Part shown: positions 608 to 43,145 of the stretch, piece after piece
Layout of the letters: every line of letters starts with the position of its first letter
How positions within the stretch are numbered: the first letter of the stretch is position 1
NCBI GenBank assembly: GCA_046350615.1
Contig: JAXMAA010000002.1
Coordinates: forward strand, 149,204 to 213,203
Length of the DNA: 64,000 nt
Origin: Candidatus Saccharimonadales bacterium
GTDB taxonomy: Bacteria > Patescibacteriota > Saccharimonadia > Saccharimonadales > UBA7683
Direction of reading: 5' to 3'
Made by a program: the position numbers and the translations under genes
The notes under the pieces: model-generated
Seen by the model: only the letters and a program-made list of their open reading frames with translations
Databases searched by the model: none
What the model was told of the DNA's origin: nothing

Positions 608-686
608 CTGTCATCTTGAGCGCGTCGAAAGATCTGGCTGATCTGCTATGTACTTATTAGATCCTTCGACAAGCTCAGGATGGCAG
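608..686. repeat. palindromic repeat element, intergenic copy (family GTCATCYTGAGC...GCTCAGGATGRC)
   Basis: Arms ctgtcatcttgagcgcgtcgaaagatct (608-635) and agatccttcgacaagctcaggatggcag (659-686) are imperfect reverse complements around a 23-nt loop. Related copies at 5831-5911 and 25146-25214. Confidence 0.8.
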
Positions 687-1154
687 GGGTGGAGTTTCGA
701 AATTCAGTTTTAGACCAACATGGACGGTTGGGCTGATATCTTCTGGTAATGCACTCAGCGGAAACCACCTAACCTCTAAAATTTCGAGGGGACGATTAAT
801 TGCAGGTTCCTTCATCTTCTTTACAGTAGTAGCAAAGAATGAAATGTGGGCAACGGGCCACTTGATGTTTGCGGGCAGCCGTTTCTCGCCAAGAAATTGA
901 AGAGGTTGATGAATTGATACGCCTGTTTCTTCAAGAGTTTCGCGCTTACACGCAGCTTCTGCAGATTCACCCTTTTTGACTCCGCCACCCGGCAGACTCC
1001 ACTTCTGTGTGCCAATGGCGCTCTTGGTAAGAAGAATATGTTGGTTTGATATGGCAATCACTCGAACTCGCCGTGAATTATGAATGAACAATCCTTTGAT
1101 TGGGAGACCAAAGGCATTCAGTAGTTTTGCGCAGCGTGCATAGAATAGCTTCAT
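675..1154 (-). CDS. NUDIX hydrolase
   Basis: Nudix box GGGVKKGESAEAACKRETLEETGV. The stop codon and last 5 codons lie inside the palindromic element. Confidence 0.85.
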   Translation of the reverse strand: MKLFYARCAKLLNAFGLPIKGLFIHNSRRVRVIAISNQHILLTKSAIGTQKWSLPGGGVKKGESAEAACKRETLEETGVSIHQPLQFLGEKRLPANIKWPVAHISFFATTVKKMKEPAINRPLEILEVRWFPLSALPEDISPTVHVGLKLNFETPPLPS

Positions 1155-5207: not shown

Positions 5208-5625
5208 ATTTGGGGACTTTCCCATATACTGGCTGCCGGAGAGCGAAGAAGACAGCCCGGTTCTAGAGTTATTTAGTGATCCTGAAGGCCTAGAATATAT
5301 CTATGCGAGGCCCAACTCTTATGTCAATTCTCATTATGCTATGGCGCGTATTGAACGCGCAGACAGTGTCTTGGTACTAAGCGATCTGCAGGGTGCTGGG
5401 TGGAGTGATGACGAGACGCTCGATAGTTTTTTGAATGGTGCCATAGTTTATCGTAGGGCCGAAGATACATTAAAGAATCTATCATTCATAGAAGTTCATA
5501 CACATGAATGGGCTGTTCGAATGGGGCTGTTTGAGAGAGGGTTCACCCAGAGTTCCCAGAACGTGATGCGGCTTGATTTGAATCATCTACGATCTAGGCT
5601 AGGGGCGTGCGATGCCAGCTCCTAA
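5200..5625 (+). CDS. hypothetical protein
   Basis: The in-frame ATG at 5200 overlaps the upstream stop (ATGCTTGA). The stop overlaps the rsmA start. Track ORF 5041..5625 is trimmed accordingly. No family recognised. Confidence 0.5.
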   Translation: MLEFGDFPIYWLPESEEDSPVLELFSDPEGLEYIYARPNSYVNSHYAMARIERADSVLVLSDLQGAGWSDDETLDSFLNGAIVYRRAEDTLKNLSFIEVHTHEWAVRMGLFERGFTQSSQNVMRLDLNHLRSRLGACDASS

Positions 5626-6463
5626 AAAATCGCTTGGGCAGCACTGGCTGTTTGACGAGGCAAGTCTAGATGCCATGCTTGTGGCTGGCGAGGTTACTAC
5701 CGAAAACACAGTCTTAGAGGTTGGCCCGGGTCTAGGCACCCTCACGGCCAAACTCTGTCAAAACGCCAAAGAGGTCATTGCAGTAGAACTCGACGATACA
5801 TTGGCTACTGAGCTAAAGGGTAATACACTTCGTCATCTTGAGCGAAGCAAAGCGCAGCCGAAAGATCTAGTCTCAAACACAGATCAGATCCTTCGGCAGG
5901 CTCAGGATGACATCACCAATCTCACAGTAGTAAACCAGAGTATTCTTGAATTCGATCTTTCAACATTACCCAAAAACTATAAAGTCATCGCTAACATCCC
6001 GTACTACCTAACTTCAAACCTGATTCGCCGCCTGCTAGAAAGCGCTAACCCCCCAAGGGTTATGGCGCTTTTAGTACAAAAAGAAGTGGCCGAGCGTATT
6101 GCTGCTAAGCCTGGGCAAATGAGCATTCTAACTGTTGCCACCCAGTTTTGTGCCGAAGTTGAGCTAAAAGAACTTGTCCCGGCTGAACTATTTACACCGC
6201 CGCCAAAAGTTGATAGCCAAATCATCCAAATAAAACGGCGTGAAACACAGCTTTTCCCGGATGTCGATACCAAAAAGTTCTTTCATCTGGTGCGAGCCGG
6301 CTTTTCTGAAAAACGCAAAAAACTCCGTTCATCCCTAAGTGGTGGCCTGAACATTTCAAAGGTTGAAGCCGACCAGCTTTTACAAAAAGCCAGCATCTCC
6401 CTAAATACTCGTGCGCAAGAACTGAGTCTCAGAGATTGGCACAACCTCTATAAGAACATATAG
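5612..6463 (+). CDS. rsmA: 16S rRNA (adenine1518/1519-N6)-dimethyltransferase RsmA/KsgA carrying a 27-codon repeat-derived insertion
   Basis: KKSLGQHWL, VLEVGPGLGTLT SAM motif, IANIPYYLTS. Confidence 0.9.
   Translation: MPAPKKSLGQHWLFDEASLDAMLVAGEVTTENTVLEVGPGLGTLTAKLCQNAKEVIAVELDDTLATELKGNTLRHLERSKAQPKDLVSNTDQILRQAQDDITNLTVVNQSILEFDLSTLPKNYKVIANIPYYLTSNLIRRLLESANPPRVMALLVQKEVAERIAAKPGQMSILTVATQFCAEVELKELVPAELFTPPPKVDSQIIQIKRRETQLFPDVDTKKFFHLVRAGFSEKRKKLRSSLSGGLNISKVEADQLLQKASISLNTRAQELSLRDWHNLYKNI
5831..5911 (+). repeat. palindromic repeat element inserted in frame in rsmA
   Basis: gtcatcttgagcg..ccgaaagatct (5832-5868) pairs with agatccttcggcaggctcaggatgac (5886-5911). 81 nt = 27 codons, RHLERSKAQPKDLVSNTDQILRQAQDD. 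Confidence 0.8.
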
Positions 6464-8112: not shown

Positions 8113-8530
8113 GGGGATGACATAGCTTTAGACGAAGAGACCTTAACAATCTGTACCAGCGTGTTGACTTACGAACATAATTCGTTTTTTAATTGCAAAC
8201 TTTGTTGCATCAGTACGTTCAGCATTCAACGGTGCTGTATCTAGCCTTGCTGCTATGATTCAGTCTCCTGTTGCTGTACGTGCGACAGCTGCCTAATTTT
8301 AGCGTAGCCATCGATCTCTTGACGTCAGATAGAGTCAGATCGGTGTCATATTTATCTGGCTTGGTTGGCTGCGGTTTATCAGCGTAGCTTTCGACATTTC
8401 ACTGATTACGGTTTATTGGTTTTTTGTTTGTTCTTACATCCAATAATTCGTTAAATCTAGAATAAACTACACACGTAGAAGGACAGATGTTACTTTTCGG
8501 ACGCGGGTGCAATACCCGCCATCTCCACCA
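8113..8530 (+). ncRNA. ssrA: tmRNA (transfer-messenger RNA)
   Basis: 5' GGGGATGACATAGCTTTAGACG and 3' GGACGCGGGTGCAATACCCGCCATCTCCACCA (T-arm, acceptor, CCA). Internal tag frame from GCA 8195 to TAA 8294-8296 ends in ..TAA-coded Ala-Ala. Confidence 0.9.
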
Positions 8531-9794: not shown

Positions 9795-11012
9795 ATGCCT
9801 TATAATTCACGTTCGTACGGCGGAAACCGTCGCAAACAATATGGCGGCAATCGAAACCGATTCAACAACCGTAACAACAAAACACGCAATATGGTAAAGG
9901 GGCGTGGTCAATATATCGATCCAGCCAAGTTTGTGCGCATGGCAACACCGGTAGAGATTGAGGAATATGTGCCAACTCACCTGTTTGCCGATTTTGCGGT
10001 TGACCAGCTTATAAAAGATAATCTGGTGCAAAAAGGCTATCAAGTGCCTTCACCAATTCAAGATCAAACCATTCCGATTGGCCTTGAAGGCAAAGATGTA
10101 ATTGGTATAGCCAACACCGGTACGGGTAAAACTGCTGCCTTTTCGCTCCCAGTTCTCGATCGCCTGATGCATGATCCGCACGCCAAGGCGCTCATTATTG
10201 CGCCAACACGCGAACTGGCGCAACAGATTGAAGATGAAATGCGCTCCATTGCCAAGGGTAGTGGGCTTTTCGGCGTACTACTCATTGGCGGTACTCCAAT
10301 GGGTCCACAGCTCCGTGATCTTAAAATGAAGCCACGAATTGTGATAGGTACGCCAGGTCGTATTAAGGATCACCTGGAACGGGGCAGTCTTATCTTAGAT
10401 CGCTTCAATCTTGTTGTACTCGATGAAGTAGATCGCATGCTTGATATGGGCTTTTTGCCAGATATGCAGTTTATTCTTGATAGTGTTGCACAAGATCGTC
10501 AATCATTCTTCTTTTCGGCAACGATGGACAGGACAGTTGATGGGCTTATTCAGAAGTTCTCCGACAACCCCATAACGGTTTCTGTAAAAACAGGTGATAC
10601 CAGTGATAATGTGCACCAAAATGTGGTTCATTACACCTCAAGAGAGGATAAAATTGAAAAACTGCACGATGCCTTAATTCAAGACCACGTTAAAAAGGTG
10701 ATTATTTTTGATGAGACTCAGCGAAGTGTAGAGCGTTTGAATACCGAACTTGCAAGCCGTGGTTTTGCAACAGATGCCATTCATGGCGGCAAAACGCAGG
10801 GTCAGCGGCAGCGGGCACTCAAAAAGTTTAAAGAAACCGACATAGATATATTAGTGGCTACCGATGTGGCTGCTCGTGGGATCGATGTAAAAGATATCAC
10901 TCACGTAATTAATTACGGCCTTCCGCAAACCTACGAAGATTACACACACCGAATCGGGCGCGCTGGCCGTGCTGGCAAAACTGGCTACGCACTCACGTTC
11001 ATCACAAAGTAA
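9795..11012 (+). CDS. DEAD-box ATP-dependent RNA helicase
   Basis: Q motif PSPIQ, GTGKTAAF, DEVDRM, SAT, HRIGRAGRAG. R/N/G-rich N-terminal tail. Confidence 0.92.
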   Translation: MPYNSRSYGGNRRKQYGGNRNRFNNRNNKTRNMVKGRGQYIDPAKFVRMATPVEIEEYVPTHLFADFAVDQLIKDNLVQKGYQVPSPIQDQTIPIGLEGKDVIGIANTGTGKTAAFSLPVLDRLMHDPHAKALIIAPTRELAQQIEDEMRSIAKGSGLFGVLLIGGTPMGPQLRDLKMKPRIVIGTPGRIKDHLERGSLILDRFNLVVLDEVDRMLDMGFLPDMQFILDSVAQDRQSFFFSATMDRTVDGLIQKFSDNPITVSVKTGDTSDNVHQNVVHYTSREDKIEKLHDALIQDHVKKVIIFDETQRSVERLNTELASRGFATDAIHGGKTQGQRQRALKKFKETDIDILVATDVAARGIDVKDITHVINYGLPQTYEDYTHRIGRAGRAGKTGYALTFITK

Positions 11013-11026
11013 TTCGCACTTTCTTA

Positions 11027-11055
11027 ATCTGTTTGAGGACTGTCCTCAAACAGAT
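11027..11055. repeat. REP-like hairpin, left copy
   Basis: atctgtttgaggac-t-gtcctcaaacagat: perfect 14-bp stem. The outer flank ttcttaa mirrors the right copy. Confidence 0.85.
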
Positions 11056-11069
11056 GGGCAAAATGTGAT

Positions 11070-11684
11070 TTATGAATTTACTAGATCTGATTTAATATCT
11101 TGAAGATCAGATCTTTTCTGTTGGTAAGATTTTAAAAATTCAAGGTAGTCTTGCTCAGACTTGAATAAATTGAGAATGGGCTCGGTCACAATCCATTCAG
11201 GAGTAGCGAGATCGCAGTAATACTTCAAACTCGAGTACTTATACCTGCGCCAGTAGCGGGGGTTCATGTGGATGTAGCGACTAATGTGATCAAGGTATGT
11301 TGCTGAGTCGATGTGACTTGCCTTGTATCTACTCTCAAACAAGGAGCCTGTGCGTTGATATTTATGGTTAAAGTATCTGCTATAGCTTGTCATGATCGCC
11401 CGCATAAAAGCAGACATAGCACCAGCCTCGTGTTGGTAGATGAGTATGTGAAAATGGTTTCCCATAAGACAGTATGCGAGTAGCTGGATGTCTCCGTGAT
11501 AATGCGGATACGTTTGCCCAACCTTATTTTTAGCTGGCTTCACCGAAAGATAGCGCTTAAATAAGCTGATAAAAAATAGCCGGTCAGAAACATCAAGAAA
11601 GATAGCTTGCCTGTTTCCTCCACGAGCGTAAATATGGTAGTAAGCTTCGGCGACGTCATGTTTAAGGATATTCCTGGACGGCAT
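11070..11684 (-). CDS. REP-associated tyrosine transposase (RAYT, IS200-like Y1 transposase family, COG1943)
   Basis: YHIYARGGNRQAIF, HUH motif MGNHFHILIY, GSLFESRYKA, catalytic-Tyr region YLDHISRYIHMNP. Confidence 0.85.
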   Translation of the reverse strand: MPSRNILKHDVAEAYYHIYARGGNRQAIFLDVSDRLFFISLFKRYLSVKPAKNKVGQTYPHYHGDIQLLAYCLMGNHFHILIYQHEAGAMSAFMRAIMTSYSRYFNHKYQRTGSLFESRYKASHIDSATYLDHISRYIHMNPRYWRRYKYSSLKYYCDLATPEWIVTEPILNLFKSEQDYLEFLKSYQQKRSDLQDIKSDLVNS

Positions 11685-11709
11685 AATTTTATAATATCAC
11701 AAAAACATT

Positions 11710-11738
11710 ATCTGTTTGAGGACAGTCCTCAAACAGAT
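11710..11738. repeat. REP-like hairpin, right copy (inverted)
   Basis: atctgtttgaggac-a-gtcctcaaacagat, followed by ttaagaa. Confidence 0.85.
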
Positions 11739-11787
11739 TAAGAAAATGTGATTTGACTTGATTATGGTTACGATTTAGCGTGGAGGG

Positions 11788-23786: not shown

Positions 23787-23924
23787 GGTTCATTCCTCCT
23801 CAGGAATTGCCCGCCAACTTGACGAGCATATGTATTATAGCGCTTATGTAATAAAATGTCAATAGCTTACTCCTGTTAGTGCTTCTATGGAATTCTTTTA
23901 CTACCTCCGTTATACTAGATGTTA

Positions 23925-25901
23925 ATGAATGCACAGGAAATTAGACGAAAGTACTTAGAGTTTTTTGAAAAAAACGGGCATAAAGTGATCCCGCGGGCTT
24001 TGTTGGTGCCATATAATGATCCGACAACGCTTTTCACCGGTTCTGGCATGCAGCCGCTTATTCCGTATCTCCTGGGTGAGCCACACCCGGCTGGTACACG
24101 TGTAACGGATAGTCAGACGTGCCTGAGAGCAATGGATATCGAGGATGTTGGTGATGATCGGCACACAACATTTTTTGAAATGCTCGGTAACTGGAGTCTG
24201 GGTGATTACGGGAAGAAAGAGCAAATTGAGTGGTTCTTTACTTTTTTGGTAGAAATTGCCGGTCTCGATCCAAACAATATCTACATCACCTGTTTTATCG
24301 GCGACGAAGAGGCCGGTATACCACGCGATACCGAAGCGGCTGAAATCTGGCAAAGACTTTTTGAGAGTAAGAGTATAGAGGCAGGTATTGTGGCCATTGG
24401 CTCGCAAGAAGATGGCAATAAACGTGGGGTCAAACCTGGCGAGAGAATTTTTTATTATGATGACGGCGAAAACTGGTGGAGCCGCAACGGCGGTATAGCT
24501 AAAACCCCTATTGGCGACCCTTGTGGGCCAGACAGTGAAGTTTTTTATGATTTCGGCGAGGCTGCTCATAAGCCCGGCTTTGGCGAAGCCCATCCGGCGA
24601 GTGATTCCGGCCGCTTTATTGAGATTGGCAACCAGGTGTTCATGGAATATAAGCGTACTGAAAGTGGTTTTGAGAAGTTGGCTAAACCAAATATTGATTT
24701 TGGTGGTGGCTTGGAGCGTATTGCACAGGCGGCAATTAATTCATCTGATATGTTTAAGATTTCGATCTTGTGGCCAATTATTGAGGAGCTGGAGCGGATT
24801 TCTGGTAAAAAGTACGATAATCACCGCGAGAGTATGCAAGTAATCGCTGATCATCTGAGGGCCGCCACATTTTTGGCGGTCGATGGAGTAAAGCCGAACA
24901 ACAAAGAGCAGGGCTATGTGATGAGGCGATTGCTGCGGCGAGCCATTCGTTTTGCATTTGAGCTTGGCGTTGAGCAGAACTTTTTGCAAGATGTCGTGCC
25001 AGTTATCGCCGATTTATACAAAGATGATTACTCGGAAGTTGCCGCAAAACGCGATGAAGTGATTGATGTTTTGATACGAGAAGAAAAGGCCTTTCGCCAA
25101 ACTCTCAGAAAAGGGTTGAAGGAGTTTACAAAGCTCTTCAATCGCCGTCATTCCCGGCTCGATCGGGGATCTCGTGCCAATACTAACGAGATCCCCAGTC
25201 AAGCTGAGGATGACAAAGCTGCTGGCCTGTCGCATGGCGAAGCTATTTTTACTCTTTACGATACCTATGGGTTTCCGGTAGAACTTTCTGTCGAAGAAGC
25301 CTTTAAGCAAGGAATTGAGCTGGATGATACATGGCGAGAACAGTTTGAGGCGAAGATGAAGCAGCAGCGTGAACGTTCGCAAACGGCCGCCAAGGGTACG
25401 TTTAAGGGCGGACTTGGCGGGCAGCAGTTAATTCATAAAAAGTATCACACTGCCACGCACTTGATGTATCAGGCACTGCGTGATGTTTTGGGAGATCATG
25501 TCATTCAGCGTGGCTCAAATATTACCGAAGAACGCCTTCGGTTCGATTTTTCTCATCCTGAAAAAGTAACGCGCGAACAGTTAAATCAAGTAGAAGAGAT
25601 TGTAAATAGGGAAATTGCGAAAGATCTGCAAATTTCTTGGGCCGAGTATCCGACCGAAGAAGCAACCGGTTCTCTCGGTGCGTTGGGGCAATTCGGCGAT
25701 CGCTATGGTGATACGGTGAAGGTGTATTCAATGAAAGATCCAAAATCTTCTGAAGACGAGCGGCCCTTTAGTTTTGAAATTTGCGGTGGTCCGCACGTAG
25801 ACCACACCTCACAACTGCTGGAAGATGGCAAAAAGTTTAAAATCTTGAAGGAAGAAGCTAGTTCAGCTGGCATTCGCCGCATCAAAGCCGTTTTGGCTTA
25901 A
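23925..25901 (+). CDS. alaS: alanine--tRNA ligase, short form lacking the C-Ala domain, with a 23-codon repeat-derived insertion
   Basis: EIRRKYLEFFEKNGH, FTGSGMQP, HTATHLM, CGGPHV. TATACT at 23911-23916 lies 8 nt before the ATG at 23925; alternative ATG at 23919. Confidence 0.93.
   Translation: MNAQEIRRKYLEFFEKNGHKVIPRALLVPYNDPTTLFTGSGMQPLIPYLLGEPHPAGTRVTDSQTCLRAMDIEDVGDDRHTTFFEMLGNWSLGDYGKKEQIEWFFTFLVEIAGLDPNNIYITCFIGDEEAGIPRDTEAAEIWQRLFESKSIEAGIVAIGSQEDGNKRGVKPGERIFYYDDGENWWSRNGGIAKTPIGDPCGPDSEVFYDFGEAAHKPGFGEAHPASDSGRFIEIGNQVFMEYKRTESGFEKLAKPNIDFGGGLERIAQAAINSSDMFKISILWPIIEELERISGKKYDNHRESMQVIADHLRAATFLAVDGVKPNNKEQGYVMRRLLRRAIRFAFELGVEQNFLQDVVPVIADLYKDDYSEVAAKRDEVIDVLIREEKAFRQTLRKGLKEFTKLFNRRHSRLDRGSRANTNEIPSQAEDDKAAGLSHGEAIFTLYDTYGFPVELSVEEAFKQGIELDDTWREQFEAKMKQQRERSQTAAKGTFKGGLGGQQLIHKKYHTATHLMYQALRDVLGDHVIQRGSNITEERLRFDFSHPEKVTREQLNQVEEIVNREIAKDLQISWAEYPTEEATGSLGALGQFGDRYGDTVKVYSMKDPKSSEDERPFSFEICGGPHVDHTSQLLEDGKKFKILKEEASSAGIRRIKAVLA
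25146..25214 (+). repeat. palindromic repeat element inserted in frame in alaS
   Basis: gtcattcccggctcgatcggggatctcg (25147-25174) pairs with cgagatccccagtcaagctgaggatgac (25187-25214). 69 nt = 23 codons, RHSRLDRGSRANTNEIPSQAEDD. Confidence 0.8.
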
Positions 25902-33942: not shown

Positions 33943-35616
33943 ATGTCCATACTGCAACGAATAAAAATTGTTAAAAATCGTACTAACCAAAAAAGAGACA
34001 ACAAAGGAAGGTTTAGTTCGGGTTCTGGCGGTGTTAGGCTTGCTCAAGGCTTCAGTTGGAGGCGCAACATACCAGTAATTATCGTTGTTGCGCTTGTGGG
34101 CGGTTACTTTGTGTGGAGATCCTCAGCAAGTACCACCCCATATGATCACTCGTTAAGAAGTTGTGTCACAGCTCGCATTGCAACAAATACTTTAACTATG
34201 GACTACGCTATGAGTAACCCGCAATGTGCACTATATTCCAACGAGGCTTTTGTGTACCGATTATACCAAGCTGCGACTGGCAAAAACCCGAGCAAGAGCC
34301 AGTATCTTAGCTTGCTTAAAGTTCATCTGATTTACTCAAAGTCTCCAGAAAAGACGGCGCAAGTTGTTGCCGCTCAAATAACTGATCAAGAAGGTGCAGT
34401 TCCTCCGGGCGCGTATGTTCGCAACGCTTCGATAAATGGTTTGGGTTTTGTTGAAGACAAGAACTGGATTGCTCTTAAGACGCATATGCTCGAGACCGGT
34501 AAAGATACCCAAGGGGATATTTTATATGGTTATGTGCGCCAATCTACCTCGGCAAAATTTTTGGAACAAAATTTCAAGAACTACATGAGAACGTTTACGT
34601 TTTCAGAAGTTGATAAAGCAGTGTACCAAGCTAGTTCGGCTGCCGCTACATTAAAACCTTCTTGTGCGCTTTCGGTTACGCTTAGTGACGGTGTCTATAA
34701 GGCAGCTTGGGCAAGCTCCAGCCTTTCACAAACTGATAGATCGCTTCAAGTGCGACTACAGAATAGTGCCAGAGATGAAACGTATAAACTCTCGGCGTTT
34801 GGCGGTTCGCAGACGGTTAAACCAAAACCCGGCATTAAAAACTCCTATACCTTGAACATTATGCGCACCTCAGAGATTATTGCGAGCTGTAGTACCTTTG
34901 TAACGCCACCTGCTGAAACAGTTTCACCTCGAGGTACGTACACTGAATGGAATTGGACCTCCACGGTTCCTTTAACAACATTACAACACAGTCTTGTTGT
35001 TAATGAGGTGAAGACAGACGCGCCGTATTTTTGGTCACATCAATTTGGCTTTAAGGGTGGTGATGGGGGATATGTTGGACTGCAATCGAACGGTTCTCGA
35101 GTTGATGGTACGGTGGGCAAAACAGCAGTGTTTTCAATATTTAGCTCTGGTATGGAGGCATCGCCAGCGAAAGCATGCAAGATTGAGCAAGAAGGATTTG
35201 ATGGGTATGAAACCTCTGGCACGAGTTGTCGCATAACTTATGATTGGCAGCCAGGTCGTAAGTATGATCTTAAAGTTGCGCTGACGGCAAAAGATAACAC
35301 TGGCAACTGGTGGAGCGGTTCGATCAAGGATACGGTTACAAACCAGCAGACACTGATTGCCAAAATAAAAACACCAGTAAAGTGGACGGCCTTCAAAGAT
35401 TGGTCGGTTATGTGGACAGAATATTTTGGCGGACTTCCTGAGACGTGTGCAGATTTGGCATATTCGTCAGTAAACTTTTATCAGCCGTCAGCCAATGGCG
35501 GCGGCATTCAGCCTTCGGGTACTAAAAATGTACTCTCCACGGGTGATAAATGCAATAATTCAAGCATAGCCCCAACAAACTTTGGTTCTACTCAGAAGAT
35601 GGGCACGCAGCGTTAG
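33943..35616 (+). CDS. membrane-anchored secreted hypothetical protein (C-terminal beta-sandwich, possibly DUF3472-like)
   Basis: N-terminal basic region plus TM. The C-terminal region YFWSHQFGFKGGDGGYVGLQSNG recalls DUF3472, from memory only. Confidence 0.55.
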   Translation: MSILQRIKIVKNRTNQKRDNKGRFSSGSGGVRLAQGFSWRRNIPVIIVVALVGGYFVWRSSASTTPYDHSLRSCVTARIATNTLTMDYAMSNPQCALYSNEAFVYRLYQAATGKNPSKSQYLSLLKVHLIYSKSPEKTAQVVAAQITDQEGAVPPGAYVRNASINGLGFVEDKNWIALKTHMLETGKDTQGDILYGYVRQSTSAKFLEQNFKNYMRTFTFSEVDKAVYQASSAAATLKPSCALSVTLSDGVYKAAWASSSLSQTDRSLQVRLQNSARDETYKLSAFGGSQTVKPKPGIKNSYTLNIMRTSEIIASCSTFVTPPAETVSPRGTYTEWNWTSTVPLTTLQHSLVVNEVKTDAPYFWSHQFGFKGGDGGYVGLQSNGSRVDGTVGKTAVFSIFSSGMEASPAKACKIEQEGFDGYETSGTSCRITYDWQPGRKYDLKVALTAKDNTGNWWSGSIKDTVTNQQTLIAKIKTPVKWTAFKDWSVMWTEYFGGLPETCADLAYSSVNFYQPSANGGGIQPSGTKNVLSTGDKCNNSSIAPTNFGSTQKMGTQR

Positions 35617-35712: not shown

Positions 35713-36254
35713 TAACAAACTAAACGAGTATGAGTTGAGCACTCGCTCGTCAGGAGTTCTTGCTAATCTGTTTGCATGGATTATCAAGAACTCCTGACTG
35801 AGCGTGTCCTTGCTCAAGAGCAAGGCCTACTTTCAGCTAGGGGTAGCAATATCCGCAAGATGAGGGAGAGCTCATGAGTTTGTTCTCTGGCACCACCACG
35901 CTGGATTGTGAGCCACACTGGCGCACCGCCGGCGAGCTGGCCGCTACCTCCGGGATGATGACCGGAGGTTCTGAGGCGTAGATCGCGCTCTGCGTTCGAA
36001 GCTTCTTTGCCAGCCAAATATCTGATCACCCTCCCGCCGGGTGGGTGATCACTGCGTCAACAGCGACGCCACAAAATGGCGGAGCAGGAAGTGCTGAAAG
36101 TACGGAGGAGTAATATCTTGCGTTCGGACGTCGTAGTTGGGCTAGTTGTTTCGGCGGGGGCCGAGGCACACCAAAAACACCATCCGTCATCAAGAACCCC
36201 TCTAACCTGAAAGCACCCTGCTCCGCCAAGTGGCGAAACTCGTTTAGTTTGTTA
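35713..36254 (+). ncRNA. candidate large structured ncRNA (or ORF-less MITE), unassigned family
   Basis: A perfect 17-bp pairing of the ends, taacaaactaaacgagt (35713-35729) with actcgtttagtttgtta (36238-36254). GC-rich and hairpin-dense, with a long-range 11+5 bp helix 36078-36095/36212-36227. No credible ORF. Strand is tentative. Confidence 0.5.
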
Positions 36255-36267
36255 CTAAACTCCTATG

Positions 36268-36292
36268 TTACCCGAGAGGGTTATTTTTATTT
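36268..36292 (+). terminator. weak terminator-like hairpin after the structured element
   Basis: accc-GAGA-gggt followed by tatttttattt. Confidence 0.3.
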
Positions 36293-36319
36293 GTCAGCAC
36301 GTTATTTATCCGACATACT
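36291..36319 (+). promoter_or_regulatory. promoter of leaderless sbcB
   Basis: TTGTCA, 17-nt spacer, CATACT, then 7 nt to the ATG at 36327. Confidence 0.5.
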
Positions 36320-36326
36320 AGAGCAC

Positions 36327-37757
36327 ATGGCCTTTTATTTTTACGATCTTGAAACCTCAGGAATTAACGCTCGAGCCCAGCGAATAATGCAATTTGCAGG
36401 ACAGCGAACAGATGAGAACTTTCAATCGCTTGGCGAGCCACAAAATTGGCTAGTGAAACTGAGTGATGAGATCCTGCCAGATCCTGACGCAGTACTCATT
36501 ACGGGCATCACTCCGCAGAAAACACTTGAAGAAGGCTATAGTGAGGCGGAGTTTCTGAAGCTGTTTTATAAAGAGGTTTTACAGCCCGATACCATAATTT
36601 GCGGCTTTAATACTATTCGTTTTGATGATGAATTTATGCGCAATACCTTGTGGCGCAATTTTTACGATCCGTATGAATGGCAGTGGCAAGATGGTCGTTC
36701 ACGTTGGGATCTACTGGATGTTGTTCGCATGGTTCGGGCGCTTCGGCCAGATGGTATTACGTGGCCGGTTGATGAAAAAGGCCAACCAACCAACCGGCTC
36801 GAGTTGCTTACAAAGGCTAATGGCCTAGATCACGAGAATGCTCATGACGCACTGAGTGATGTGCGGGCAACAATTGCGGTGGCGCAGCTACTCAAGCAAA
36901 AGCAGCCAAAGATGTTTGAATATCTTCTTTCTGTGCGAATAAAGAAGACAGTACAAATGCTGCTAAATCTCGATGATCCTCAGCCATTTGTATATACATC
37001 TGGCCGTTTTGCAAACGCATGGCAAAAAACGACAGTAGTTGTGCCATTTGCTGAAGGTGAACACGGCGCGGTGCTTGTTTATGATCTGCGGCAAGATCCC
37101 GATCAGTTGGCCAAGCTTGATGATACTGAGTTGAGTCAAAAAGCATTCCAACGTGATTCAGAAACCGAACTGCTCCCGGTGAAGGCGCTGAAAGATAATA
37201 AATGCCCGGCTGTTGCACCACTTGGCGTGTTCGATACGGCATGTCAGAAGCGTCTGCATCTCAGTATGCAAACAGTTGAGGATAACCTGAAAAAGCTACG
37301 CCGTAATCAAGATCTGGTTGATCGCCTGGGGCAGCTTTTTACGAAACGAACTGAGGAGATGAAGGCAAAATTTCCAGCTCATGCAGATCCAGATTTTCAG
37401 CTGTACGATGGGTTCTTGAATGACGCCGACAAGGGGCGGATGAGCGCAGTACGGGCGGCAGATATGGATAGTTTGGTTGATCTAACGCTTGATTTTACAG
37501 ATGAGCGTCTCTCGCAATTGTTGCCTCGGTACAAAGCTCGCAATTTTCCGCGTAGCTTGACGGCATCTGAAAGGAGTGCGTGGGAAGAGTATCGCCGCAA
37601 ACGCTTGGCTCGTGGGGTCGAGGGCCAACTTTCGTTCGAAAAATTTGCTCAGCGGCTTGCCGAGCTAGTCCAGATTAAGGTTAGTGATGAACACGCTCAA
37701 TTTTTGCTTCAAGAACTCCAGCTATACGCCGAAAGTATCGCGCCAGATGAAAGCTAG
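36327..37757 (+). CDS. sbcB: exodeoxyribonuclease I
   Basis: FYFYDLETSG, FNTIRFDDEF, HDALSDVRAT (DEDDh), about 476 aa. Track ORF trimmed to MAFYFYD. Confidence 0.88.
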   Translation: MAFYFYDLETSGINARAQRIMQFAGQRTDENFQSLGEPQNWLVKLSDEILPDPDAVLITGITPQKTLEEGYSEAEFLKLFYKEVLQPDTIICGFNTIRFDDEFMRNTLWRNFYDPYEWQWQDGRSRWDLLDVVRMVRALRPDGITWPVDEKGQPTNRLELLTKANGLDHENAHDALSDVRATIAVAQLLKQKQPKMFEYLLSVRIKKTVQMLLNLDDPQPFVYTSGRFANAWQKTTVVVPFAEGEHGAVLVYDLRQDPDQLAKLDDTELSQKAFQRDSETELLPVKALKDNKCPAVAPLGVFDTACQKRLHLSMQTVEDNLKKLRRNQDLVDRLGQLFTKRTEEMKAKFPAHADPDFQLYDGFLNDADKGRMSAVRAADMDSLVDLTLDFTDERLSQLLPRYKARNFPRSLTASERSAWEEYRRKRLARGVEGQLSFEKFAQRLAELVQIKVSDEHAQFLLQELQLYAESIAPDES

Positions 37758-39737: not shown

Positions 39738-40322
39738 GTGTCAACTGCTTCAGCTGGTGAAGGAATTTACGTTGGTTTTGAGGTAGCCCAAGAGAGGGGG
39801 TTGACCCAGTTTGTTAAGGGTATACCAAGGACTATCGGGGAGCCCGAAGACTTTCGAACACTCAGTATAACAGGTATGTACCCTGAAGAGTTGGCAGAGC
39901 GAGGCCTGGGGCGTCACGAGCGTCGACGACTAACCCCGTTAGTGAGGCACATACAAAGACGCATTTCGCACCTAGCTATAGTGGGCTCTACGGTCGAGCC
40001 CAATCAAGATGAGCTTGTAGCTCATAAAAAATTTGCTGCAATAGCTATAGATCCTAGCGAAGAAATGGTTGATGCGAGGGAAGTTATCAGCGGTCTCGTA
40101 TTGGATGAAATTGGTATCAAACTCCCAAATTATAACCCAAGAGGCTGGCATATATCTGTTGCCAGAAGATCAGGGCGAGGTGAAAAGCTGCCTCCTTACA
40201 GGAGGCCGATTCCGCCAAGTATGGTCGTAAGCGGGATTACGGTTGCTATACGTTCGGCAAAGGGAGACATGGCTAATGTGCGAGACTATGTAAACGTTCC
40301 TAGGCACAGGTGGCAAAGATAA
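39738..40322 (+). CDS. hypothetical protein
   Basis: ORF only. A single HISV motif is insufficient to call a 2H phosphoesterase. Confidence 0.45.
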
Positions 40323-40339
40323 CGTATAATAACCAGGAT

Positions 40340-43145
40340 ATGTCGGAGTTTATTTCTGTTCGTGGTGCACGGGAGCACAATCTAAAAAATGTTGATGTTG
40401 AGATTCCGCGCGAGAAGTTAGTGGTCATTACTGGGCTTTCTGGATCGGGCAAATCATCTTTGGCGTTCGATACTATTTACGCCGAAGGGCAACGACGTTA
40501 TGTGGAAAGCCTTTCAAGTTACGCACGCCAGTTCTTAGGATTAATGGAAAAGCCGGATGTTGATCAAATTGACGGTCTTTCACCAGCAATTTCAATTGAT
40601 CAAAAATCAACCAGCCGCAATCCGCGCTCCACAGTGGCAACGGTAACAGAAATTTACGATTATCTGCGTTTGTTGTTCGCACGTATTGGTGTGCCGCATT
40701 GTCCCATTGATGGCAACGAGGTGCGACGCTTAACGCCGCAGGCAATTGTTGATGAGGTCCTCACCATGGAGCAAGGTGCGCGCGTGATGATTTTGGCTCC
40801 CATTGTTGCAGCAAGGTCAATTCGAGCACATTCCAGGCGAGTATCAGCGAAGCGGTTTTGCTCGAGCTCGAGTTGACGGTGTTGTATATAGTCTTGATGA
40901 ATGGCCTGAACTTGATAAAAAGTTTAAGCACACAATCGAGATCGTGGTCGATCGTTTAACTAATGATGAGGCAAATCAAGGCCGCTTAGCACAATCAATC
41001 GAACAGGCGCTGGAGATTGGTAGAGAAAGCGTTACTGTGCATAACGCCGACACCAAAGAAGATCGTTTGCTCTCACAGCGCTATGCTTGTCCGGATCACC
41101 CCGATCTTGCTCTACCAGAGCTTGAGCCTCGTATTTTTAGCTTCAATGCGCCACAAGGCGCCTGTCCAACCTGTACAGGTTTAGGATCTCGGCTTGAGGT
41201 TGACCCTGAGCTAGTTATTCCAAATGGTAACCTAACTATTGCCGAAGGCGCAATCCGCCCCTTTAACCGGGTGAACGCAGATGCATGGTATATGAAGAAG
41301 ATGCAAGCTGTGGCAGAGAAGCACGGATTTAGTTTGCAGGTCCCAACAGCTCAGTTGAAACAAGATGATCTTGATAAAATTTTGTATGGAACCGGAAATG
41401 AGAAATACACTATTCAGCTTGGAAGTGGGCGTTATTTCGACACAACTTATGAGGGCGTTATTCCAAACCTTGAGCGTCGCCATAAAGAAACCGATAGTGA
41501 TTTTATGCGGCGAGATATCGAACGCTTTATGCGCGAGCGTCCTTGCAATACTTGTAAAGGCGCTCGTCTCAAACCGGAGGTGCTTGCGGTAACGGTCCAT
41601 GGTTCTTCAATCAAAGACATTACCGATCTTTCAGTGAGCGATGCACTTGCATTGCTTCAAAAGACAAAGTTCACAGAGAAAGAACAGTTTATTGTGGCGC
41701 AGGTGAGTAAAGAGATTATTTCACGCCTAACCTTTCTTAACAACGTAGGCCTGAATTATCTCAACTTAAGTCGAAGTGCTGCCACGCTCTCGGGCGGCGA
41801 GGCACAGCGTATTCGTTTGGCAACCCAAATTGGTTCTGGTTTGCAAGGCGTGCTATACGTGCTTGATGAGCCTTCCATTGGCTTGCATCAACGTGATAAC
41901 GATCGCTTGATTACAACACTCAAGCACCTGAGAGATCTCGGCAATTCAGTGCTGGTAGTTGAGCATGATGAAGATACCATTCGCGCGGCCGATTGGCTCA
42001 TAGATATTGGCCCTGGCGCCGGTGTGCATGGAGGCGCGATCGTAGCGGCCGGAACTCCCAGTGCCGTAGCTAAAAATACAGAGAGTATCACAGGGAGATA
42101 CCTGGCGGGTTCTGAAACAATCGGTGTTCCTCAAAAGCGCCGCAAAGGTAACGGCAGAGAACTGGTTATTAAGGGTGCGGCCGAACATAACCTTCAGAAT
42201 GTGAACGTGAGTATTCCTCTCGGTCAACTAGTGGTGGTAAGCGGAGTCTCCGGCTCAGGTAAATCCAGCCTCATCAACGATATTTTGGCAAAAGAGCTAC
42301 AGGCCAGGTTGCACCGCGCGCATTTGGTGCCGGGCAAACACGAAGAGATTCTTGGTATTGAGCATTTAGACAAAGCTATCATCATCGATCAATCGCCGAT
42401 TGGCCGCACACCTCGCTCTAATCCGGCAACCTATACCGGGGTTTTTACGCCAATTCGCGAATTATTTGCTAACACCCCTGAAGCTAATATTCGTGGTTAT
42501 AAAGCTGGACGCTTTAGCTTTAATGTGAAGGGCGGCCGCTGCGAAAATTGCCAAGGCGACGGCATTATCAAAATTGAGATGCACTTTTTGCCAGATGTTT
42601 ACGTTACGTGCGAGGTTTGCAAAGGCCGCCGCTATAACCGCGAGGCATTGGAAATTACCTATAAAGGTAAAAATATCTCCGATGTGCTGAACATGACAAT
42701 CGAGCAAGCGGTGGAGTTTTTTGAAAACCAACCGAGCATCGCCCGTAAGATGCAAACCCTTAATGATGTCGGTCTTGGCTATGTCAAACTTGGCCAACCC
42801 GCCACAACACTCTCTGGCGGTGAAGCGCAGCGTATTAAGTTGGCTGCTGAGCTTTCTCGTCGTGCTACCGGCAAAACACTGTATATCCTGGATGAGCCAA
42901 CCACTGGTCTGCATTCCGCGGATGTCAAAAAACTGCTCGAGGTTTTGAATGCGCTGGTAGATACCGGCAACTCCATGGTCATCATCGAACACAATCTTGA
43001 TGTGATTAAATCAGCCGACTATATTATCGATATGGGTCCAGAAGGCGGTGCTGGCGGTGGTCAAATTATGGCCGAAGGCACGCCAGAGCAAATCGCCAAA
43101 GTCAAAGCTTCCCATACTGGAAAATACTTGACAAGTATGTTATAA
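40340..43145 (+). pseudogene. uvrA: excinuclease ABC subunit A, one frameshift near 40804-40810
   Basis: [27 protein letters not shown] in the first frame. ..[24 protein letters not shown] onward is in the second frame (track ORFs 40310-40876 and 40803-43145). TATAAT at 40325-40330 precedes the ATG at 40340. Confidence 0.9.

Follow-up and report, generated by a model that had tools for sequence, protein, structure and literature searches.

An inverted dimer of CGTC-type palindromic units, probably inserted in frame and read through, in the rsmA gene of a Saccharibacteria genome

The DNA analyzed here, referred to as the window, is a 64,000-nucleotide stretch of a Candidatus Saccharimonadales genome (GenBank assembly GCA_046350615.1, contig JAXMAA010000002.1, positions 149,204 to 213,203), and its rsmA (KsgA) gene carries an 81-nt palindromic segment that is the subject of this study. 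The host gene occupies positions 5612..6463 on the plus strand and encodes 283 aa. The product is identified as RsmA/KsgA by the Pfam family RrnaAD (E=2.7e-52), and a protein from a Candidatus Saccharibacteria metagenome-assembled genome at NCBI (P0001) is 100% identical to it. KsgA from B. subtilis in the PDB matches at 1e-38 in two blocks, with query residues 71-92 left unaligned. Outside the insert, an AlphaFold2 (AF2) model of the window RsmA superposes on KsgA/Dim1 structures with TM scores of 0.72-0.86 (target-normalized).

The segment, at 5831..5911 on the plus strand, has the sequence CGTCATCTTGAGCGAAGCAAAGCGCAGCCGAAAGATCT-AGTCTCAAACACAGATC-AGATCCTTCGGCAGGCTCAGGATGAC. It consists of two inverted arms of the type known from CGTC-tagged repetitive extragenic palindromic (REP) units, with their tags facing outward, and contributes 27 in-frame codons, whose peptide RHLERSKAQPKDLVSNTDQILRQAQDD corresponds to residues 74-100 of RsmA. 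The left arm is of a long form (5831..5870, plus strand). It begins with the CGTC tag at 5831-5834 and ends in a CTAG tail at 5867-5870, and its 5-bp stem, in which ATCTT (5835-5839) pairs with AAGAT (5862-5866), encloses a 22-nt interior. The right arm is of a short form (5886..5912, minus strand) and reads TGTC-ATCCT-GAGCCTGCCGA-AGGAT-CT on the minus strand, with a stem between 5888-5892 and 5904-5908 and the TGTC tag at 5912-5909. Between the two arms lies a spacer (5871..5885, plus strand) that diverges among orthologues at approximately the rate of neutral sites. As RNA, the 81-nt segment forms a single long hairpin of -38.9 kcal/mol (z=-7.0), and none of 200 shuffled sequences was equally stable. 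The sequence-only reading of this DNA, which had described an 81-nt hairpin element adding 27 codons to rsmA, is borne out in sequence, frame and fold, and also by the empty sites in 58 of 120 orthologues described below.

Each strand of the element has one frame free of stop codons, in both cases in the phase that gives RH..DD; the other frames are closed by TGA in GTCATCTTGAGC or by TAG in the tail. On the coding strand the single open frame is that of the gene and the length is a multiple of three, so that the element is probably read through. Where the family permits, orthologues use all three phases, giving peptides that begin with RH.., VIP.. (VIPAQAGTQ) or SFP../SSS.. (SFPRRRESS). Together with the single open frame, this indicates that the phase results from avoidance of stop codons and not from the insertion mechanism. 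The phase and orientation shared by the rsmA and alaS copies, to which a meaning had earlier been attached, therefore have none of the kind proposed, as the stop codons force RH..DD.

To delimit the insertion, 120 Saccharibacteria RsmA orthologues with 59-100% identity were aligned. In 58 of these the site is empty, with a short 11-residue connection (e.g., ANLAHKVPADN) in place of the 38 residues of P0001, whose extra length is exactly 27 residues. At least 15 extra residues were found in 37 orthologues, at exactly the place of the P0001 insert, and 25 have intermediate lengths, apparent remnants among them. The alignment suggested earlier as a check thus gives the limits of the insertion, with 27 extra residues in P0001 set against the short connection. 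Two observations had been named that would speak against an insertion, conservation of the 27 residues across orthologues and an origin of the segment in an assembly chimera. Approximately half of the 120 orthologues lack the insert, and eight or more independent assemblies drawn from four sources (NCBI, Logan, ENA and JGI) have it at the identical codon, which excludes a chimera. Repeats can mis-assemble, and one RsmA fragment from a close relative (P0121, 117 aa) loses homology right after the element. Its sequence is normal up to ..ILRQAQDD and is followed by unrelated residues, so that the repeat may mark the precise position of a frameshift, a rearrangement or a contig break. Nevertheless, given the independent assemblies, the related copies elsewhere in the window, the hairpin stability far from that of shuffled sequences and the many orthologues without an insert, the probability that the segment is a chimera, or a native lineage-specific extension of RsmA that is palindromic by chance, is practically negligible.

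The extra peptides in RsmA belong to unrelated motif classes, namely RHLERSKAQ.KDL..ILRQAQDD, RRHPELVSGS..LKQVQGD, RHSRPDRESS..WIPGQAEDD, SFPRRRESS.. and SSSGLTRGS..LDSRLRGND. The DNA was compared for eleven rsmA genes (contigs L001, L002, L093 and L243-L250), and all the inserts examined are hairpin DNA of one design; in L246 (P0017) the site is empty, and decayed inserts were found in the orthologues P0007, P0008 and P0016. In L245 (10221-10510; P0027, 363 aa), five REP arms of at least three families are stacked at the rsmA site. This stack adds ~107 residues to RsmA, with the frame still open. A similar picture was obtained for AlaS, the product of the second host gene in the window, in which query residue 404 is followed by an insert of 10 aa or more in 14 of the 120 orthologues compared. 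These inserts also come from different families in different frames (RRHSRLDRGS.., SVIPAEAGTQ.., SVTLSEVEGSR and ARHSELDSESS..). In both genes, the inserts of the orthologues are always in frame and stop-free, across unrelated families and lengths. The rsmA site and the equivalent alaS site are recurrent places of landing or turnover for several REP families. A phmmer search of representatives returned only the truncated RsmA P0121, and a query with the duplicated insert peptide gave no word matches.

Translation through the element could be avoided if the 81 nt were removed or bypassed, by intron-like excision, RNase III processing or ribosomal hopping, yielding a protein without the 27 residues. 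The very stable RNA hairpin formed by the segment would suit such a process, and, to judge from the titles of papers, Patescibacteria have unusual introns in rRNA and tRNA genes. A bypass is nonetheless very improbable, because the rsmA and alaS inserts keep the frame open whatever their family or length. In the intergenic copy of the window none of the six frames is open, as would be expected if copies in genes have to be translated. The element has no match to an intron or ribozyme in Rfam, and we know of no splicing mechanism for such hairpins.

The AF2 model of RsmA was computed from 115 orthologues, with a mean predicted local distance difference test score (pLDDT) of 93 and a predicted TM score (pTM) of 0.89. 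In the model, the insert (74-100) prolongs the helix 62-80, which is followed by a loop (81-89), a second helix (90-100) and then the strand 104-107. The pLDDT is 77-79 in the insert and >90 in the rest of the fold. The insert is thus predicted to be a protruding helix-loop-helix hairpin that continues an existing helix. A tolerated surface loop had been proposed before; in the model the segment does protrude and the fold is retained, but the structure is not a plain loop. In the Rossmann-like topology of methyltransferases, the junction of the helix with strand 3 is at the edge of the sheet, opposite the cofactor cleft. By this standard topology, the insert would be located at the sheet edge, away from the cleft.

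Two more copies are present in the window, so that there are three within 64 kb, every one an inverted dimer, with the rsmA copy a long/short heterodimer. The first is a dimer of the same family between convergent genes (609..685, plus strand), with the tag TGTC on one arm and a decayed TGCC on the other. Its right arm gives the stop codon (TGA, 675-677) of a NUDIX open reading frame (ORF) at 675..1154 on the minus strand. This dimer is missing from the orthologous spacer in L001 and L002. Comparison of positions 560-745 of the window with L002 shows an insert of ~138 nt that holds the dimer, with an imperfect direct repeat of ~20 nt at its boundaries (GAAACTTTAAGCCAACA / GAAATTCAGTTTTAGACCAACA); the site in L002 is a short terminator-like hairpin between the convergent genes. 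The direct repeat is the only hint of a target duplication, and none is visible at the rsmA and alaS sites.

The other copy is in alaS (23919..25901, plus strand; 660 aa). It is an in-frame dimer of 69 nt at 25146..25214 (plus strand) that encodes RHSRLDRGSRANTNEIPSQAEDD, and A. aeolicus alanyl-tRNA synthetase (AlaRS) lacks this segment in an alignment with the PDB sequence. The left arm is CGTC-ATTCCCGG-CTCGA-TCGGGGAT-CTCG and the right arm TGTC-ATCCTCAG-CTTGA-CTGGGGAT-CTCG, both with an 8-bp stem and a 5-nt loop. Only the termini are common to the alaS and rsmA elements (CGTCAT..GATCT / AGATC..GGATGAC). Of the two copies previously assigned to the family of the rsmA element, the intergenic one belongs there; the alaS copy is from another, NTS-like family, as its stem and loop show. 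The host protein itself has the catalytic and second additional domains and ends far earlier at its C terminus than a typical bacterial AlaRS. Its orthologues have 628-675 aa and are named 'alanine--tRNA ligase-related protein' at NCBI, and an FtsA-like gene lies directly after alaS.

A generic scan for GTCAT hairpins has a background of ~6 hits per 64 kb, and hits were therefore accepted only with at least 8 pairs, a tag and a tail. A 62-nt palindrome at the junction of two uvrA ORFs (40816-40877) was considered as a decayed copy and rejected, as it is ordinary UvrA coding sequence in the second frame. Two overlapping ORFs (40310..40876 and 40803..43145) make up uvrA, which a frameshift near 40800-40812 has split; the split may be genuine (a pseudogene or a true frameshift) or come from a sequencing error. 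Another hairpin (35749-35798), located between ORFs 33943..35616 and 36249..37757, has a 20-bp stem with 19 of 20 positions complementary (GTCAGGAGTTCTTGCTAATC..GATTATCAAGAACTCCTGAC) and matched no repeat family.

The CGTC-tagged REPs were defined by Di Nocera, De Gregorio & Rocco (2013, BMC Genomics 14:522; PMC3733652) as a superfamily that takes in Neisseria dRS3 and the Rickettsia palindromic elements (RPEs) RPE-4 (= CGTC-4) and RPE-6 (= CGTC-1). The units have an unpaired CGTC (or TGTC/CCTC) tag, a stem of 8-9 bp beginning with A-T, T-A and a loop of 4-5 nt. They are mostly found as inverted homo- or heterodimers, which can fold separately or as one long hairpin. They often abut the 3' ends of genes, where they can furnish stop codons, and have no dedicated transposase. 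In-frame intragenic dimers encoding 20-30 aa were reported in several phyla, tRNA synthetase genes included (PMC3733652). The elements of the window carry the tags, CGTC at 5831-5834 with TGTC on the minus strand in rsmA and CGTC at 25146 with TGTC in alaS. The arms of the alaS type and those in L243, L244 and L245 have 8-bp stems and 5-nt loops and fit the published dimensions. Among the fetched loci, 220 of 304 left arms have a partner arm within 200 nt and 58 have none. Complementary changes are also evident, as the central stem pairs are CC/GG (191), TC/GA (23), GC/GC (5), CT/AG and AC/GT, nearly all Watson-Crick, in a count for which the arms were not fixed by the search patterns. The partner arms of one dimer often have different stem variants and so form heterodimers, a combination that weakens the long hairpin but preserves the stem within each arm.

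Codon alignments of eight rsmA genes carrying the rsmA-type family were used to follow the arms over evolution. In all eight genes a long left arm is combined with a short right one, which speaks for a single ancestral insertion followed by vertical descent. In distant pairs, the flanking third codon positions are only 35-48% identical, indicating saturation, whereas conservation in the arms extends to 14-19 of the 20-21 third positions and, over all codon positions, to 43-57 of 60-63 (75-95% identity). The 18-nt spacer of these alignments falls to 28-67% identity. An alignment of seven sequences gave 98.6% pairing within the intra-arm stems, where three pairs have changed at both positions; 1 of 500 shuffles did as well, and pairing in slid controls was 31-50%. 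For the long inter-arm helix, pairing is 93.8% and two pairs are doubly changed, which is not above the shuffles (48/500). The 5-bp intra-arm stem is therefore real in evolutionary terms despite its weak isolated fold. Such compensatory upkeep of the arm stems points to a constraint on a DNA or RNA hairpin, and the conservation of the arms suggests that in some lineages the hairpin units are constrained, or else renewed again and again.

A possible reader of such hairpins is known from Neisseria. The dRS3 unit has been redefined as NTS (CGTCATTCCCGCGMAVGCGGGAATCYRG), the binding and cleavage signal of SsnA, a small GIY-YIG nuclease of single-stranded DNA (ssDNA) encoded by a cd10448 gene that often has the motif at its flanks (Chenal et al. 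2025, Nat Commun 16:2388; PMC11893778). In Neisseria, Ssn cleaves beside NTS repeats and has a modulating effect on natural transformation (PMC11893778). By analogy, the arms described here could be functional cis-elements kept by selection, either recognition hairpins of an Ssn-type GIY-YIG nuclease or mRNA hairpins that tune rsmA and alaS expression. The conservation of arm nucleotides, third positions included, far above that of flanking synonymous sites and the compensatory changes inside a gene are in keeping with this. The alaS left arm (25146-25174) and a singleton at L001:8901 match the SRM search pattern of that study, HGTCWYN(0-2)YYVSBRHN(0-5)WNVSBRGN(0-2)RNCYNB, which has 1 match in the window compared to a shuffle mean of 0.26. 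Related Saccharibacteria contigs also contain small single-domain GIY-YIG genes (L093 3550-3771, L246 2774-3037). However, these genes, putative members of the Ssn clade, have no recognizable flanking arms, no GIY-YIG ORF was found in the 64-kb window, and the rsmA-type arms fail the SRM pattern. The orthologues compared were picked by resemblance of their peptides, and the many empty or decayed sites among orthologues indicate that the element is dispensable. A cis-acting function kept by selection is for these reasons unlikely.

In both L093 and L246, the gene for an 87-aa GIY-YIG protein is directly downstream of the transfer-messenger RNA (tmRNA) gene; no GIY-YIG gene follows the tmRNA gene of the window (8113-8530). 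The two genes may encode Ssn-like nucleases, or they may be what is left of an island that integrated at the tmRNA gene. A more speculative proposal, doubtful as it stands, is that CGTC-type arms are under purifying nucleotide selection inside housekeeping genes as working cis-sites rather than passengers, serving an Ssn-like nuclease that polices incoming DNA or being actively re-homed. In that case, the hot spots in rsmA and alaS would be signs of targeted insertion or replacement still operating in a minimal-genome, naturally transformable bacterium from the Candidate Phyla Radiation (CPR).

A transposase gene is located 5 kb downstream of rsmA (11070..11684, minus strand; 203 aa), and the dimer could be a non-autonomous element mobilized by this RAYT/IS200-like Y1 enzyme. 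In Pfam the ORF hits Y1_Tnp (4.9e-12), the REP-associated tyrosine transposase (RAYT) is its best NCBIfam model, and Y1 transposases are known to act on ssDNA hairpins (see also PMC11893778). Hairpins flank the gene: a perfect palindrome, ATCTGTTTGAGGAC-N-GTCCTCAAACAGAT, is present in identical form on each side and is followed by AAAATGTGATTT (window 11010-11766). It is missing between the DEAD-box helicase and trehalase genes of the syntenic contig L001 and so looks like a RAYT/IS200-type insertion. Yet these palindromes bear no relation to the CGTC arms and have no further copies in the window or the loci, and the NCBIfam score is 41 bits with a cutoff of 80 bits. CGTC REPs are without an associated transposase in the literature (PMC3733652), and no gene recurs beside the arms in 240 arm-bearing loci. 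Indeed, all-against-all clustering of the 3,825 ORFs of these loci gave no family in more than 14 of them, and arm pairs 0.2-5 kb apart share no enclosed gene. Mobilization by the Y1 enzyme is therefore quite improbable.

Taken together, the 81 nt are likely an inverted dimer of CGTC-tagged REP units that was inserted in frame into rsmA, is read through and is tolerated. The dimer would have entered rsmA in the ancestor of a Saccharibacteria subclade, at the junction of a helix of the Rossmann-like domain with the next strand (..NLTVV..). Its translation would add a hydrophilic helix-loop-helix protrusion of 27 residues that the enzyme tolerates, and, as far as the protein is concerned, the element would be selfish or neutral. 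The arms, in contrast to the peptide, would be kept at the nucleotide level, with their own small stems held by compensatory changes as in REP units. We infer both the selection on the arms and the route of insertion, in which no transposase is implicated.

Several observations weigh against this explanation. The rsmA-type arms, with a 5-bp stem (ATCTT/AAGAT, ATCCT/AGGAT) and an 11-22-nt interior (GAGCG...CGA), lie outside the dimensions of CGTC REPs, and the rsmA element is consequently regarded as a variant family. As isolated ssDNA, an arm of this type folds with -0.8 to -2.7 kcal/mol, no better than shuffles. The SRM pattern is failed by both rsmA arms, by the intergenic arms and by the consensus arm of the pan-bacterial matches. 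The measure of arm conservation comes from a small set of related sequences, and their selection by an element-like insert peptide introduces an ascertainment bias, with P0007, P0008 and P0016 being decayed. The copy number applies to the 64-kb window only. The insert is most probably translated, as judged from the intact frame in an otherwise conserved gene. Finally, the presence of several families at one site reflects either repeated insertion or replacement within one ancestral insert, between which a neighbor-joining tree of the RsmA orthologues is too coarse to decide.

The distribution of the arms extends well beyond Saccharibacteria. A genome scan with the terminal motif GTCATCYTGAGC..GCTCAGGATGAC gave at least 120 matches, and those listed come from Acidobacteriota, Chloroflexota, Gemmatimonadota, Bacteroidota, Verrucomicrobiota, Planctomycetota, Proteobacteria (Legionella massiliensis included), Bacillota, Cyanobacteria, Omnitrophota and Saccharibacteria. 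The matches listed have a near-invariant consensus, GTCATCCTGAGCGMAGCGAAGGATCT-loop-AGATCCTTCGCTKCGCTCAGGATGAC. In metagenomes, the window's low-GC variant has at least 120 matches, as dimers, single arms and tandem arms. Head-to-tail arrays of single arms were observed in L098 (4373-4510) and L160 (5100-5200), with four copies at a 34-nt period (Gemmatimonadaceae contig), and indicate that the arm and not the dimer is the basic repeat unit. Copies that appear to be inside ORFs in high-GC phyla were set aside as probably lying in spurious long ORFs and were not used as evidence.

Rfam has no family for the element or its canonical relatives. In the searchable literature, nothing linked palindromic, REP or miniature inverted-repeat transposable element (MITE) repeats to Saccharibacteria or Patescibacteria, and searches by sequence string returned primer coincidences only. 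The supplementary data of PMC3733652 hold no sequences matching the element; the five phyla listed there for CGTC REPs do not include Saccharibacteria/CPR, and occupation of one position by several families is noted only for Xanthomonas recB. In-frame CGTC REP dimers encoding 20-30 aa in other phyla are already known from that paper. Four points appear to be new: the host lineage (Saccharibacteria/CPR), the arm variant, which is very widely distributed, the finding that single sites in rsmA and alaS are occupied repeatedly and by stacked arms, and the conservation of intragenic arms at the nucleotide level. The sequence-only reading had called the element RPE-like and, to its knowledge, undescribed for this repeat family or lineage. 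The likeness in behavior holds, with RPE-4 and RPE-6 belonging to the same superfamily; as in-frame REP dimers were reported in 2013, of the element itself only the lineage and the arm variant appear undescribed.

These observations extend protein-coding palindromes from Rickettsia and a few phyla to the CPR, whose genomes are tiny and nearly all coding, so that a selfish repeat survives only if translated. A hairpin family of many phyla, commonly annotated as spurious 'hypothetical proteins', is now tied to the CGTC-REP/NTS superfamily. The rsmA and alaS sites, refilled by different families, offer a natural system for the study of target choice or replacement by repeats, and the strong conservation of the arms inside a gene makes what reads the hairpins a testable question. 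In practical terms, the inserts make proteins longer, and the annotation, alignment and assembly of CPR genomes can be confused by them.

The comparison with known systems brings out likenesses and differences. A MITE derives from an insertion sequence (IS) and combines terminal inverted repeats with a target-site duplication and a related autonomous IS. Inverted arms are present here; no arm pair encloses a transposase, and no neighboring gene recurs in the fetched loci. The REPIN/RAYT system reportedly described by Bertels and Rainey in 2011 consists of GTAG REPs, with doublets of two inverted units, singlets as remnants and tandem clusters. The elements described here resemble it in their hairpin doublets of inverted units, singlets and tandem clusters and differ in having a CGTC in place of a GTAG tag, and the RAYT-like gene of the window is flanked by an unrelated palindrome. 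With NTS/SRM they share hairpin units of the form CGTCAT...GGAATCYRG, the arm CGTCATTCCCGAC.TGATCGGGAATCTAG of L244/L245 being nearly the NTS consensus. In contrast, the rsmA-type arms fall outside the SRM pattern and no ssnA was found in the 64-kb window.

The closest parallel in genomic setting is with the RPEs, which Ogata and colleagues are said to have described in 2000 and 2002 as palindromic repeats lying in frame in conserved housekeeping genes of the reduced-genome, host-dependent Rickettsia. Expression of RPE-bearing proteins has reportedly been shown by experiment. RPE-1 is AT-rich and ~100-150 bp in length. The rsmA element is likewise an in-frame palindromic repeat in a conserved housekeeping gene of a bacterium with a reduced genome and a dependence on a host, missing from many orthologues and at a position compatible with the fold; it differs in lineage, in arm sequences and in being shorter than RPE-1, and it is known from sequence alone. 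Since RPE-4 and RPE-6 are assigned to the CGTC REPs, the comparison reflects, according to PMC3733652, membership in a shared superfamily and not only analogy, a tie that rests on the statement in that paper. With the CGTC-tagged REPs themselves, the arms described here differ in the 5-bp outer stem and 11-22-nt interior of the rsmA type, in a tail that is CTAG and not CCA and in their host phylum, Saccharibacteria/CPR. They have in common the CGTC/TGTC tag, the AT start of the stem, a CYRG-like tail (CTAG/CTCG), intragenic dimers, a copy near the 3' end of a gene that gives its stop codon and the lack of a linked transposase.

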